Virus record (IMG/VR): IMGVR_UViG_3300036793_000060
Coordinates: 13,090-77,089 of that record
From: a virus
Lineage: Duplodnaviria; Caudoviricetes
Length of the DNA: 64,000 nt
Direction: 5' to 3' (one strand)
Both the position numbers and the translations under genes were made by a program. The notes under the pieces are model-generated. The model was not told the origin of the DNA and did no database searches. It saw only the letters and a program-made list of their open reading frames with translations. The stretch's first letter is position 1. Every line of letters starts with the position of its first letter. This document shows positions 13,035-52,646 of the stretch, piece by piece.

Positions 13035-13285
13035 GCGTGCGGAACTTCTGGATCGAGACGCAGGTAGACGGCCACGGCGGGATCCCCGCCACTGGCCCCA
13101 AGGCAGCCGACGGCGGGTTCACGTCCAAGTTCTGGATCCGCAAGGGCGGCGAGCATGCGGCAGTCCTCCGGCTGGAGGGCATGACCACGCACAACGGAGA
13201 CGTTGAGCTGTACGTGATCCCGTCCGAGGGCACTGAGATCGAGCGCCTGGACCACGGCGGGTTCGTGATCCGCAGCAAGCGCTAG
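13031..13285 (+). CDS. Small phage protein (RNFWIETQVDG...GPKAADGG)
   Basis: ATGA overlap; coding bias. Confidence 0.75.
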   Translation: MSVRNFWIETQVDGHGGIPATGPKAADGGFTSKFWIRKGGEHAAVLRLEGMTTHNGDVELYVIPSEGTEIERLDHGGFVIRSKR

Positions 13286-13396: not shown

Positions 13397-13505
13397 GGGC
13401 GTGCAACTGCGCCGCTGACGTGCTGTAGACCCCAGTACGTTGGCGGCCAGGGACAGGAACCCGCGTGGTCAGCGGGGGCTGGTTCAATTCCAGCCGCGCC
13501 CACCA
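13397..13505 (+). ncRNA. tRNA-like RNA: acceptor stem, T-arm and ACCA, no D-arm, long central helix
   Basis: GGGCGTG/CGCGCCC 7-bp acceptor stem; GCTGG-TTCAATT-CCAGC T-arm; A-CCA end at 13502-13505; 15-bp helix 13411-13447. Confidence 0.7.
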
Positions 13506-38336: not shown

Positions 38337-38403
38337 GGATTCTCCTCCAGGTAAGGCCATTGATCGACATAGTACGCTCATCTGCCTGCCTGGCTACTGA
38401 CGA

Positions 38404-48177: not shown

Positions 48178-48494
48178 TTCCTGTAGCGCTGCGTGCGCCA
48201 TATCGCGATGCAGCGCCAGAGGATGCTCACCGGGATGAGCCAGATGGCCACCGTGTCAATCCACAGGAATGCGTAGGCGTCCGGGTTAAGCCCGATAACA
48301 CGGTGCAGGAAAGGCCCGAGAAGGGCCAGTGCCACGGTGGCGTCAAAGAATATGACATTCCACCCGAACTCATTCTTCCACCATGGCCAGTAGCCGATCT
48401 TGGGAATGCCGATGGCGGGAAACAGTACCGAGAGGATAAACGCGACGATGACCCCGTTCTCAATGAGGTCAACCAGCAGGTGCTCCGTTACCAC
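48174..48494 (-). CDS. Holin-like three-TM membrane protein
   Basis: Three hydrophobic segments; WWKNEFGWN motif. Confidence 0.65.
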   Translation of the reverse strand: MVTEHLLVDLIENGVIVAFILSVLFPAIGIPKIGYWPWWKNEFGWNVIFFDATVALALLGPFLHRVIGLNPDAYAFLWIDTVAIWLIPVSILWRCIAIWRTQRYRK

Positions 48495-48678
48495 TATTCC
48501 CCTCCCTGCGCTCGCGGACCAGGTCGCTCACCATGCCTGCGACGTGGTTCTGCTCGATCATCTCATGGAATGTCCGCCGCAGCGGCTCAGTCTCCGCCAG
48601 CCTCTTCTCCGACAGCTCCCGCTCCGCGCGGGCAGCTGCTACCCCTCCCCTCATGTGCCTCCTCCAGAACCATTTCAC
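48469..48678 (-). CDS. Small coiled protein typical of actinophage lysis cassettes
   Basis: ...QNHVAGMV motif; sits between two membrane genes. Confidence 0.6.
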   Translation of the reverse strand: MKWFWRRHMRGGVAAARAERELSEKRLAETEPLRRTFHEMIEQNHVAGMVSDLVRERREGNSGNGAPAG

Positions 48679-48954: not shown

Positions 48955-50616
48955 TCACCCCCCTAGCTTGCCGGTAGGCGAGTTCATCGAGGGCTTGGAC
49001 GGGGGCCGTGGCGGGCCTGCGGGCGCCTGCTGCACGCGCGGCTGGCCGGCCTGCCCCGGCGTGCCCCCTGCGCGCTGCCCTGGCGCCGGGGGAGGCCGAA
49101 GCCCTCCGTTCTGCGCCCCGGCCTGCTGGGCGATGCCGAACGCGGCGCTGGTCATGCCCTGCATGGCGCCCAGGCTGCCCGCTGCCTCCGGCGGCATGCC
49201 GGGCGGCGGGTTCCCCGCCAGCTGCTCGGCGCGCTGGTTGGCGGTCGAGGACAGCGCCTCGTGCACCGCGTCCACGTCCAGCTGCAGGATCGAGGCCATC
49301 CGCTCGCAGATCATGTCGAACACGGGCAGCGGGATGTGCATGGCGGGCGCCGCGTTCAGCTGGCCGAACAGGGTCATGATCGCCTGCGCCTGCTCATCCT
49401 CCAGCGGGCCGAACTTGAACGTGGGGAAGACGGCCTTGCTGCCGAAGTTGAGCAGGATCAGCGGCCGGATCACGTCGTAGGCGATCGACTCGGAGATCTC
49501 CGTGGCGATTGCCTGCCTGGACTGCAGGAAGAAGCTGGACTGGTCCTGGGACAGGGCGAAGCTGCCCTTCCCGCCGGTAGCGCTGCCGGTCAGGGCGAGG
49601 AACCCTGCCAGGATGCTGTGCGTCTGCCAGCTCTCCAGCCAGGCCATCGCCTCGGAGAAGAACTTGCCGCCGTCGCCGCTGCCCTCCAGCACCTCGAATG
49701 TCTTGGCGTTGTCGCTCGGGCGCTCCAGGCCGACCACGCCGCTGGACTTCAGCGAGGCGATGTCGCTCGCCTTGGCGTTGGCCTCGTTCTGGTCGTTGCC
49801 GTAGACGATGGTGCGCGGCAGGGCCTGGTTCTCCAGGAAGTGGTACCAGAGGTACAGGAGCTTCATCTTGGTCTGGTAGCACCAGTAGCAGACCTCAAGC
49901 TCGGACACGCCGGTCATCGGCTCGCGGTACTTGCCGTGGGTGTAGATGTAGCTGCGCATCCGTGGGATGTCGACGTAGCCGGGGACCTTCTGCTTGCGCT
50001 GCACCATCAGGTTGCCGCCGAACAGCCACACCTGCTGGCGGAACCCGTTCGGCTCGCCGCTGCGGTCGTTGTAGCGGGCCTGGCAGGTCGCCGGGGGCCG
50101 GTAGGCGATCTTGTCGTAGATGACCTTGCCGTCGCTGTCGCGGATCTTGAACGTCTTCTCGAAGAAGGACCGCCGGAAAATCTGGGCCGACGTGACCTGG
50201 CCTATCAGCTCGGACATCGGGGTCTTCATGCCGCCCTCGGAGTCCGGCGTCATCAGGACGCTGTTCGCCAGCTTGGCCTCGCCGCTGTCCCCCTTGCCCC
50301 CGGTTATCGACCTGTCTGCCTGCCTGATCGGGAGGGTGAGTGCCTGCGCCAGCGCTGCGGAGATGCCGTCGCGGGAGAACATGACCTTCATGTCCCTCGC
50401 GCCCCACTCGCCTTAAACCGTAGTCAAAGACATCACCTTCCCCATAGTACGCAAACAACCTCTGACCCCAGTCAAATTGGGTAATTGCGTGCCGATCTCC
50501 GGACCAAGCAGCGAGCGCCTACCTCCGCCCGCAGACTTGCTCCCCTTTGGGGGAAGATCAGGAAACTCAACTACATTCTCTAGTCCAGCTACCTTCTTCT
50601 TGGATGAATCAACCAC
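48955..50616 (-). CDS. Portal protein (Mu gp29/DUF935-like), predicted 548 aa after two translational bypasses
   Basis: Main frame: LTLPI, YTHG...GVSEL, P....Y, GSFALSQDQSSFF. The 5' part is split into 50616-50485, 50476-50417 and 50409 onward by 8- and 7-nt TTA-containing gaps. Confidence 0.85.
50410..50419 (-). other. Candidate bypass site 2: GGU (take-off), UUA, A, GGC (landing); 7 nt skipped
   Basis: Minus strand reads gac tac GGT TTA A GGC gag tgg. Confidence 0.75.
50477..50487 (-). other. Candidate bypass site 1: CAA (take-off), UUA, CC, CAA (landing); 8 nt skipped
   Basis: Minus strand reads ggc acg CAA TTA CC CAA ttt gac tgg. Confidence 0.75.
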
Positions 50617-50683
50617 AGTGGCATCACCTCCCTTGCTTTCGGGCGGCGTATGCCGCTGAGGACTTGCTGCTCATCATGCCCGC

Positions 50684-52342
50684 TCAGCGGTAAGGATGCA
50701 CGACCGCTCGCCCAGACGGGCGTGCTGACTCGTCGTCGTCGGCCGGCTGGGGGGCGAACCCGTCGGGCGTCCAGTCGCCGCCCGCGACGTTGTAGGCGCC
50801 TCCGTGCGCGGTCACCAGGCGCCTGCTGGCCTGCGCCTCCTTGCTCGGCTCGGTGGGCGAGAACCCGAGCGAGCCGCCCGCCGCGTCCAGGATCGCCGAG
50901 TCGGAGTCAGTGGCCCACTTGCGGGGCCGTGCGGCCTCCTGCGGGACGCTGGACAGGTACAGGAACTTCTGCAGCGCCCAGACCATCGAGTCCATCCTGT
51001 CCGGGGACCGCTCGCCCTCAGCCCCGGTGAACGTCTTCATCTGGTCCTCAAGCTCGATCATGCCCTCGGAGTCCAGCTCGCCCTGCCTGTCGCGGCGCTC
51101 CATCTTGCAGTGCCGGACCTTCATCCGCTGGTACAGCGCGGCCACCGGCTCAGCGCGGGTGCGCTTGTTCTGGCTGGCCCATACCTCCTCGATCACCGGC
51201 ACGTGGCCGGGCGGCACCAGCCCGTCTGCCTGCAGCTCCTTGATGACCTGCCGGAACATGGAGATCATCCACTGCCCGCCGTGGTTGCGCTCGACCACGA
51301 TCCGCGCCTGCCACTGCACGGCCTTCAGCACTACCCTGCGCCCGAACTGCGGCGGAGACTCCTGGCCGCCCCAGTTCTCGGCCACGTACACCGTGTCGTC
51401 GCCGCCGAACCCCAGCCCGGCGATCGTGTAGGCCTGCTCGTCGGAGGTCTCGGTGCCGTCGGAGGGGTCGACGCCGATCACCGCGTTGCGCAGCCACGGC
51501 TCGCCGTCCGGCCCGCTGATCGCCGGGACCTGGATGGACTCCAGCAGCTCAAGCGTCCACATCGCGTTGGGGACGTCGTCGAGCAGGACGCCCTCAAGCT
51601 CCTGCCGCTCAAGCCGGGTTCCCCTGCTCGCGCCGATGACCGTCCGGTAGAACGCGTCGGACAGGTTGTCCCGGTTGTCGACGGTGCGCAGCCGGCGCGA
51701 GATGACCCCGCCGTGCTCCTCCTCGTTGCGCAGCAGGGACCGGAACAGCCGGGCGGCCGGCCTGGCTGCCTTGGGCGTGGCCGTCGCGATGATCACAGAC
51801 ACGCCATGGCGCACCGCGTACCGCAGCGACTCATTCCAGGTGGTCTCCCACTTCTCCCACAGGCCGATCTCGTCGCACCAGGCAGCCTTCAGGTTGCGGC
51901 CCTGGATCCGCAGGCCTCCCTCAGCGGCCGAGTCGATGTAGACGACGATGCCGCTGTGCAGGATCACCTGGCCGTAGGTGCGCCACGCGTTCCGAACCGT
52001 CTTGGACGTGTGCGCCTTGACCTCCTTCATCGAGGTCCCCAGCGCCCTCAGCAGGCCGGACTCGCCCTCGACGCACTTGGTCCAGGCGTCGGCGTAGGTG
52101 GGCGCCACGATGCCGTACTCACCCTCGCCGTCGGTGTCGCCCTGGATGATCTCGGCCAGGTCTTGCGCGCCGGCCCGCGTCTTCCCGGACCCGCGCCCGC
52201 CGGACAGCAGCAGGACCCGCCAGCTGCCGTCCATCGGGGGCAGCAGCTGGTCGGGCCTGGCGTCCTGCCGCCAGCGGACGCGCGGGTCTCCTGCGGGCTT
52301 CTCGAACCGTGCCTGCACCATGCCGAGGACCGCGAGGTCCAC
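50684..52342 (-). CDS. terL: Terminase large subunit
   Basis: LSGGRGSGKTRAG Walker A, AWCDEIG Walker B, TATPK, IGVDPS, SPDRMDSMVWA. Confidence 0.95.
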   Translation of the reverse strand: MDLAVLGMVQARFEKPAGDPRVRWRQDARPDQLLPPMDGSWRVLLLSGGRGSGKTRAGAQDLAEIIQGDTDGEGEYGIVAPTYADAWTKCVEGESGLLRALGTSMKEVKAHTSKTVRNAWRTYGQVILHSGIVVYIDSAAEGGLRIQGRNLKAAWCDEIGLWEKWETTWNESLRYAVRHGVSVIIATATPKAARPAARLFRSLLRNEEEHGGVISRRLRTVDNRDNLSDAFYRTVIGASRGTRLERQELEGVLLDDVPNAMWTLELLESIQVPAISGPDGEPWLRNAVIGVDPSDGTETSDEQAYTIAGLGFGGDDTVYVAENWGGQESPPQFGRRVVLKAVQWQARIVVERNHGGQWMISMFRQVIKELQADGLVPPGHVPVIEEVWASQNKRTRAEPVAALYQRMKVRHCKMERRDRQGELDSEGMIELEDQMKTFTGAEGERSPDRMDSMVWALQKFLYLSSVPQEAARPRKWATDSDSAILDAAGGSLGFSPTEPSKEAQASRRLVTAHGGAYNVAGGDWTPDGFAPQPADDDESARPSGRAVVHPYR

Positions 52343-52352
52343 GGCGTGCGGG

Positions 52353-52646
52353 CTAGCCGTAGATGGCACGCCAGTGCTCGCGGACGTCTTCCTTCGCGTC
52401 ATCCCACTCGGGCAGCTCCTCGCCCCGGACGGACACGTAGCCCGCGTGCTGGGCGTACCGCTGGTAGCCGCCCTTCGCCATCGCCTCACGGTGCTCGGGG
52501 TGCTGCGCCAGCAGCCTGCCCAGCTCATTCCAGAAGCTGGCCACGTGGCCCCTGTCCTCGGTGACCAGGTTCGTGACGGGTCCGTAGGTCGTCCTGACCG
52601 TGACCTGGTCCTTCGCCGTGCCCTCCCAGCTCGCGCTGAGCGTCAT
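52353..52646 (-). CDS. Hypothetical protein
   Basis: RBS GGAGG before ATG 52646. Confidence 0.65.
   Translation of the reverse strand: MTLSASWEGTAKDQVTVRTTYGPVTNLVTEDRGHVASFWNELGRLLAQHPEHREAMAKGGYQRYAQHAGYVSVRGEELPEWDDAKEDVREHWRAIYG

Follow-up and report, generated by a model that had tools for sequence, protein, structure and literature searches.

The portal gene of an uncultured soil phage (Duplodnaviria; Caudoviricetes) is interrupted twice near its 5' end by short stretches that each begin with an in-frame TTA codon, and we consider it likely that the 548-amino acid portal is made via two successive short translational bypasses, i.e. ribosome hops. The gene lies on the minus strand of a 64,000-nucleotide stretch (positions 13,090 to 77,089 of IMG/VR record IMGVR_UViG_3300036793_000060; hereafter the window), which belongs to a complete virus genome of 77,089 bp with direct terminal repeats and a guanine-plus-cytosine (GC) content of 68.4%. 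We confirmed the observation that the gene is twice interrupted, and comparison with related phages gives the bypass reading good support. Further, we show that gap-bearing portal genes in this family are maintained by selection and carry landing triplets that are competent to pair with the tRNA arriving from the take-off codon.

Two TTA-headed gaps interrupt the portal gene of the window

The layout of the portal gene is given in Table 1. When translation is followed from the GTG at 50616, the incoming frame (frame A) reads ACG CAA TTA CCC AAT and ends at a TAA (50415-50413), forming an open reading frame (ORF) of 67 codons. The main portal ORF (50391-48955, 478 amino acids from its ATG), which matches Portal_Mu PF06074 in Pfam with an E-value of 2.8e-32 over profile positions 7-318, shares frame A with this short ORF. 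The two gaps sum to 15 nucleotides (nt), so that leaving out both restores the frame and gives a joined portal of 44 + 20 + 484 = 548 amino acids. Both TTA codons sit in the incoming frame, directly 3' of the codon from which the ribosome would take off, and each gap closes with a triplet that matches the take-off codon, identically at gap 1 (CAA/CAA) and synonymously at gap 2 (GGC/GGT). If the UUA at site 1 is decoded, a stop follows 23 codons on, at the TAA that lies inside gap 2. The original prediction for this DNA had described the frames, the TTA codons and the CAA/CAA and GGU/GGC pairs at the two breaks, and had stated that reading the first UUA as a codon leads to the UAA at 50415-50413; re-reading of the minus strand showed the description to be accurate, and frame A does stop there.

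Table 1. Features of the portal gene and its surroundings, in window coordinates
Feature	Position	Strand	Remarks
Shine-Dalgarno-like GGAGGTGA	50624..50631	-	10 nt 5' of the portal start; putative ribosome binding site
Portal coding segment 1	50485..50616	-	GTG start at 50616; 44 codons, the last being take-off CAA 50487-50485
Coding gap 1, TTACCCAA	50484-50477	-	8 nt; in-frame TTA 50484-50482; landing CAA 50479-50477
Portal coding segment 2	50417..50476	-	20 codons (FDW...FDYG), meaningful only in the frame one base behind; the last is take-off GGT 50419-50417
Coding gap 2, TTAAGGC	50416-50410	-	7 nt; in-frame TTA 50416-50414; landing GGC 50412-50410
Portal coding segment 3	48955..50409	-	484 codons plus stop; holds the Mu-type portal domain
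Large terminase gene	50684..52528	-	Directly upstream of the portal gene; uninterrupted; Pfam Terminase_6N/6C

We noted that the spacing between the terminase and portal genes is 67 nt in the window, and several relatives (L007, L010, L013, L015, L017, L024, L048 and others) have ~1.5-2 kb of extra DNA between the two genes.

Relatives encode the joined sequence without interruption

Relatives of the portal gene were gathered from IMG/VR (63 loci, 54-81% identity), from genome bins (4 loci, three of them in Streptosporangiaceae and one labelled Mycobacterium) and from metagenomes (79 loci). In ~75 non-redundant relatives, the sequence ...FPDL...EIGTQFDWGQRLFAYYGEGDVFDYGEW..RDMK.MF.RDG... is contiguous in one frame; both inserts are missing from these intact relatives and the sequences that flank them are adjacent. 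When both gaps are left out, the window yields exactly this conserved N-terminal sequence, to which segment 1 contributes the matching VVEFPDL...EIGTQ stretch, and the key columns of the motif are invariant in an alignment of 27 intact homologues (alignment A2). The prediction that skipping both gaps gives a coherent 548-amino acid portal is thus borne out, the joined sequence being identical to the motif of intact relatives, and the homologue comparison that had been proposed as a check shows EIGTQ/FDW...FDYG/EW (here and below, a slash marks the position of a gap) to be contiguous and nearly invariant in gap-free relatives. A more distant protein, the annotated portal of Streptomyces phage LazerLemon, is 36% identical to the window portal and has ~55 N-terminal residues ahead of the point at which its alignment with the ATG-initiated ORF of the window starts; these residues include a recognisably similar motif. 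Structural modelling was uninformative as to whether the N-terminal motif is structured: AlphaFold2 applied to the intact L007 portal with a 27-sequence alignment gave a mean predicted local distance difference test score of 50, with values below 50 at the N terminus, and a profile search of solved structures returned only weak portal matches (9c39_A, E-value 1e-3).

These comparisons bear on the possibility that the functional portal is the 478-amino acid product of initiation at ATG 50391, perhaps through reinitiation by ribosomes that have terminated at the UAA, with the upstream parts as a leader peptide or a remnant in decay. This ATG is preceded by the sequence GAGGGAC and, 22 nt upstream, by the frame-A stop, and the Portal_Mu profile match begins only at residue 4 of the 478-amino acid ORF. 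However, the spacing from this Shine-Dalgarno-like sequence to the ATG is poor (~3 nt), and a protein started there would lose an N-terminal motif that ranks with the best-conserved regions of the portal in alignment A2 and that can still be recognised in LazerLemon. The original prediction had named homologues that begin near MKVMFSRDG as a finding that would speak against it, but the N-terminal motif precedes this sequence in intact relatives. Further, comparison of the shifted 20-codon segment 2 with the sister locus L003 shows 12 synonymous changes and not one that is non-synonymous, and gaps within the portal body of relatives (AFF/EK, see below) are beyond rescue by an internal start. 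We therefore regard a portal that starts at ATG 50391 as very unlikely.

Gaps of the same design recur in related portal genes

Gaps were called by frameshift-aware protein-to-DNA alignment over 107 non-redundant loci, and ~32 of these loci contain, between them, 49 distinct short gaps of 2-18 nt at 12 recurrent sites (EIGT/Q, Q/F, QF/D, AYY/G, DVF/D, FD/Y, DY/G, DYG/E, RD/M, AMF/R, AFF/EK and one in a distant relative). An in-frame TTA heads 42 of the 49 gaps. The other seven are headed by TAG or TGA and are found at AYY/G (L107, L117, L144, L123, L139 and L148) and FD/Y (L134), as, for example, in TAC-TAGTTAC-GGC. Site 2 of the window carries other TTA gaps in L024, L117, L107, L148 and L144, and TTA gaps inside the portal body, at AFF/EK, are present in L070, L123, L124, L147 and L149. 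The nucleotide that follows TTA is A (18 gaps) or G (13 gaps) in 31 of the 42 cases, which places a UAA or UAG in the +1 frame, and 9 of the 10 gaps with C at this position read TTACC. After the gap codon is decoded, a stop is reached at a median of ~12 codons across the family.

The match between landing triplet and take-off codon extends to the family. In 47 of 47 testable gaps, the landing triplet is able to pair with the take-off tRNA at two or more of three positions, compared with 26 of 188 control triplets shifted by 1-2 nt (Fisher's exact test, 6e-31); full pairing is seen in 14 of the 47 gaps and in none of the 188 controls (3e-11). The commonest take-off/landing pair is TTC -> GTC, and the two sites of the window, with one exact and one synonymous match, are among the cleanest of the family. 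Further, the take-off codons are often the weaker-pairing CAA, GGT, TAT and GAT, where gap-free relatives have CAG, GGC, TAC and GAC. The GC content at third codon positions (GC3) is 0.76 around gaps versus 0.92 (p = 2e-10), a difference that is partly confounded by the lower overall GC content of gap-bearing loci.

Conventional single-step frameshifting, by -1 (or +2) close to site 1 and by +1 close to site 2 (e.g. a Ty1-like event at UUA-AGG-C), would leave each junction of the portal with a small number of added or changed residues (e.g. ...TQITQFDW...). The net shifts required are indeed -1/+2 and +1, AGG, which is also rare, comes after UUA at site 2, and two members of the family need merely a +2 slip in the T-run TTT-TT-AGG. 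Yet site 1 is without a slippery heptamer, a +1 shift at the site-2 UUA falls straight onto UAA, and the residues added would enlarge a motif that keeps a constant spacing across the 27 intact homologues. Stops lie within four of the seven in-frame gaps, those of 11, 12, 15 and 18 nt (e.g. TTA ACG TAG and TTA CCC GCG TGA), and therefore neither read-through nor a 1-nt shift resolves them; the landing-triplet statistics are likewise left unexplained. In the terminase gene of phage phiHau3, moreover, a +1-frame stop within the gap left recoding undiminished (PMC10732093). We give single-step shifting little credence.

Two further loci have 2-nt frame-disrupting anomalies that are not led by TTA (CAG-TTTTT-GAC in L122 and GAG GCC TGA CCC in L094); these may be homopolymer or assembly errors or another kind of slip. 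A search of the terminase genes of the window and its relatives for breaks like those of the portal genes found none. We did note a same-frame interruption of ~770 nt in two terminase genes (L020:1165-1934 and L054:1143-1942), near the position of residue 500 of the window terminase, which may be an intein or an inserted domain.

Gap-bearing portal genes are maintained by selection

In the portal tree, the first four gap-bearing loci (the window, L024, L028 and L048) are scattered, each beside a gap-free sister, and the pairs L048/L050 and L028/L040 are 93-94% identical in nucleotide sequence and differ by the inserts. In four other pairs (L069/L108, L107/L117, L048/L120 and L124/L070), the same gap has been kept at only 71-81% nucleotide identity, and the portal sequence downstream of the gaps in these pairs has a ratio of non-synonymous to synonymous substitution rates (dN/dS) of 0.10-0.31 at a synonymous divergence (dS) of 0.44-1.2. 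Identical gaps were also recovered from separate samples (L102/L103/L104 and L081/L082). The persistence of the gaps, the dN/dS values and the independent assemblies rule out a reading of the family as pseudogenes or assembly errors.

For the window itself, the corresponding explanation is that both inserts arose as errors in assembly or sequencing, or as recent mutations that inactivate the gene, and that the genome is defective. The sequence does come from a single metagenome assembly, and the anomalies in L122 and L094, which lack a leading TTA, may be errors. On the other hand, inserts of 8 and 7 nt that place the rarest codon first, in frame, and a copy of the preceding codon last are unlike errors, and because of this design an error specific to this contig is improbable. 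The same design is under purifying selection and appears in independent samples across the family, and the genome is otherwise complete with terminal repeats. Taken as a whole, we judge error or recent inactivation to be very unlikely.

The phage avoids TTA codons

A GC-frame filter was applied to the ORFs of the whole genome, and in those that passed it TTA is used for 4 of 19,403 codons, or 4 of the 1,618 leucine codons. Two of the four belong to ORFs that run antisense to longer genes, a third precedes a likely start, and the last comes eight codons before the stop of an 85-codon ORF located within the first 13 kb of the genome (L071, minus strand, start at genome position 2746); none falls convincingly within a real gene. 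The phage thus displays the UUA avoidance expected of a phiHau3-type bypass. In the relatives, the only in-frame TTA among 26,002 portal-body codons is the head of another gap. Because TTA is so rare in the genome and in the portal bodies of relatives, the TTA-led gaps of the window are more than a matter of chance.

We considered the TTA codons at 38354 and 11064 as further hop sites and rejected them, as they are intergenic and upstream of start codons. A scan of the window for GC3 frame switches, intended to reveal more TTA hops, did not pick up even the portal sites, owing to the many rare codons at the 5' end of that gene: between 50410 and 50620, AT-ending rare codons abound and the GC content is 52-58%, compared with 68% overall. 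Another patch of low GC content (54-59%) covers small ORFs at 48200-48500, immediately downstream of the portal gene. No tRNA encoded by the phage was found with ARAGORN and Rfam; at 13397-13501 on the plus strand, where ARAGORN reports no tRNA, Rfam gives a sub-threshold tRNA-Sec match (20.9 bits, E-value 0.1, against a gathering score of 47). The genes of the phage include a family A DNA polymerase, an SNF2 helicase and a PD-(D/E)XK nuclease. A search of the genome for tyrosine or serine recombinases found none, and hence no integrase, and for this reason the phage is probably virulent.

Discussion

We propose that translation of the portal mRNA would proceed as follows. At site 1, the ribosome would decode CAA (50487-50485) and then meet UUA in the A site; UUA, by far the rarest codon in the phage and presumably in its actinomycete host, would be slow to be read. 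With the A site empty, the peptidyl-tRNA-Gln would unpair, the mRNA would slide by 8 nt, and the tRNA would re-pair at the second CAA, from which decoding would resume at UUU. Twenty codons on, at site 2, the peptidyl-tRNA-Gly would leave GGU, skip 7 nt, land on GGC and resume at GAG. Failure at site 1, with UUA read as leucine, would yield a 67-amino acid peptide, and read-through of site 2 alone would yield an out-of-frame product of ~237 amino acids. Exact hops would give rise to the tryptic junction peptides SLLGPEIGTQFDWGQR and LFAYYGEGDVFDYGEWGAR, which span GTQ/FDW and DYG/EW, respectively. What we infer is the hop itself, the slowness of UUA as its trigger, and either a limited output of portal or a coupling of its synthesis to charged tRNA-Leu(UAA) of the bldA type. 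The portal is needed in 12 copies per virion, and because just 12 copies suffice, a limited output would be tolerable.

Several points weigh against this proposal. First, the mRNA structure around both sites is no better than that of shuffled sequences (z = 0.44, -1.1 and 0.33). Second, read-through of site 2 is not followed by a nearby stop (173 codons), which would be wasteful for a designed switch. Third, the two gaps of the window itself rest on one assembly. Fourth, the occurrence of relatives in Streptosporangiaceae bins of metagenome-assembled genomes is weak evidence for a host. Finally, the repeated codon could in part reflect a duplication-like origin of the inserts and not re-pairing. 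Shine-Dalgarno-like G-rich stretches (GGAG and AAGGTGAT) are present 12-17 nt upstream, and the same bases encode conserved residues.

Obligatory translational bypassing is among the rarest known departures from standard decoding, and the window adds to it a clean double case in another essential gene and another phage lineage. The 49 gaps at 12 sites amount to a natural mutagenesis series, from which it is possible to derive rules for take-off, gap length and landing. For annotation, the consequence is that such portals will be broken up or shortened by gene callers, the ORFs of 67 and 478 amino acids here being an example. With regard to function, the portal hop could be a sensor of tRNA-Leu(UAA) or a mere throttle on a 12-copy protein. 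The original prediction, according to which portal would be made only when Leu-tRNA(UAA) is scarce and two sites in series would sharpen a host-state switch, goes beyond what our comparison supports. Tentatively, and with somewhat less than even confidence, we suggest that hops triggered by UUA or a stop codon may be a common, heritable and fast-evolving device in the packaging genes of soil actinophages, with cassettes of 2-18 nt repeatedly gained or lost at a dozen sites of this portal family. In a phage that lacks lysogeny functions, such hops might act as a sensor of host tRNA-Leu(UAA) or as a throttle. If so, virions would be assembled only in hosts at the right physiological stage, and, should the link to tRNA-Leu(UAA) hold, actinomycete phages would read the developmental state of the host via one tRNA. 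More speculatively, throttled synthesis of portal and terminase, both of which are sensed by Avs-type defences, might also delay immune detection.

Comparison with known bypass systems

A bypass in the phiHau3 terminase gene was reportedly proposed by Smith et al. in 2013 (J Bacteriol 195:4924). Experimental support now exists for bypass of two 10-nt UUA-headed inserts in this gene (Antonov et al. 2023, PMC10732093), and mass spectrometry detected a junction peptide in E. coli; in the StrepC.1 and S. catenulae prophages, the terminase gene has a single insert (PMC10732093). In its published form, UUA-triggered bypassing is known from three terminase genes with four sites between them, and the authors call it largely overlooked (PMC10732093). 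A possible UUA bypass in the Bxb1 primase is mentioned in one 2025 paper. The original prediction had spoken of a single UUA bypass in the phiHau3 terminase; there are instead two gaps (JX182369, PMC10732093), which we read from JX182369 as GGC-TTACTCCGGT-AAG and TCT-TTAACGGTCC-ACG, with synonymous take-off and landing codons (GGC/GGT and TCT/TCC). The claim of novelty for a double bypass in a portal gene therefore goes too far: our full-text search of the literature turned up no account of portal genes with gaps of this kind, and the location appears to be unpublished, but a double UUA bypass as such is already on record in the phiHau3 terminase (PMC10732093).

The window portal resembles the phiHau3-type genes in that each insert is headed by an in-frame UUA after the take-off codon, ends in a cognate landing triplet and separates flanks that are adjacent in insert-free homologues. 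As in phiHau3, two sites occur in series in one essential gene for DNA packaging, and the actinophage has a high GC content and avoids TTA elsewhere. The two differ in the gene concerned (terminase in phiHau3, portal here) and in the length of the gaps (10 nt versus 8 and 7 nt), and a stem-loop has been proposed for phiHau3, whereas no significant flanking stem-loop is found here. The phages themselves are unrelated: phiHau3 is R4-like and temperate, whereas the phage of the window has a Mu-type portal, a 77-kb genome with terminal repeats, its own DNA polymerase and no integrase. Because the genome is without an integrase, the lysis/lysogeny logic of phiHau3 is not directly transferable to it. 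Further, the portal family has far more variants (49), some of them stop-headed.

Bypassing in T4 gene 60 likewise involves a peptidyl-tRNA-Gly that moves between matched glycine codons, as at site 2, and a codon in the A site that is not decoded at take-off, and the stop-headed gaps of the relatives resemble its take-off next to a stop. It differs in its 50-nt gap, in the UAG that occupies the A site and in its requirement for a nascent-peptide signal and a take-off stem-loop; in the window portal, the gaps are 7-8 nt, the trigger is a sense codon and the T4 signals are not evident. We therefore rejected membership in the T4 gene 60 type on account of the 8- and 7-nt gaps, the sense TTA in the A site and the lack of significant structure.

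Hopping of tRNAs over short distances at hungry or stop codons was reportedly described in E. coli by Weiss et al. in 1987 and by Gallant and Lindsley. The likeness lies in hops of a few nucleotides, a slow codon in the A site and the need for a triplet further on to which the P-site tRNA can pair; two of three positions may suffice for this, as is seen in most gaps of the portal family. However, the E. coli events are low-level reporter or error events, whereas hopping in the portal gene would be obligatory for an essential gene and maintained in evolution. The mitochondrial 'byp' elements of Magnusiomyces capitatus, which Lang et al. are said to have described in 2014, resemble the portal gaps in that insertion has occurred independently many times within a gene family, in that take-off and landing codons match, and in that the inserts come and go among relatives, but they are structured elements of 27-55 nt in a yeast mitochondrion and have no single rare sense codon as their key. 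Overall, the gene design places the window portal with phiHau3: it appears to be a real case of UUA bypass of the phiHau3 type, with both the gene and the phage lineage new.

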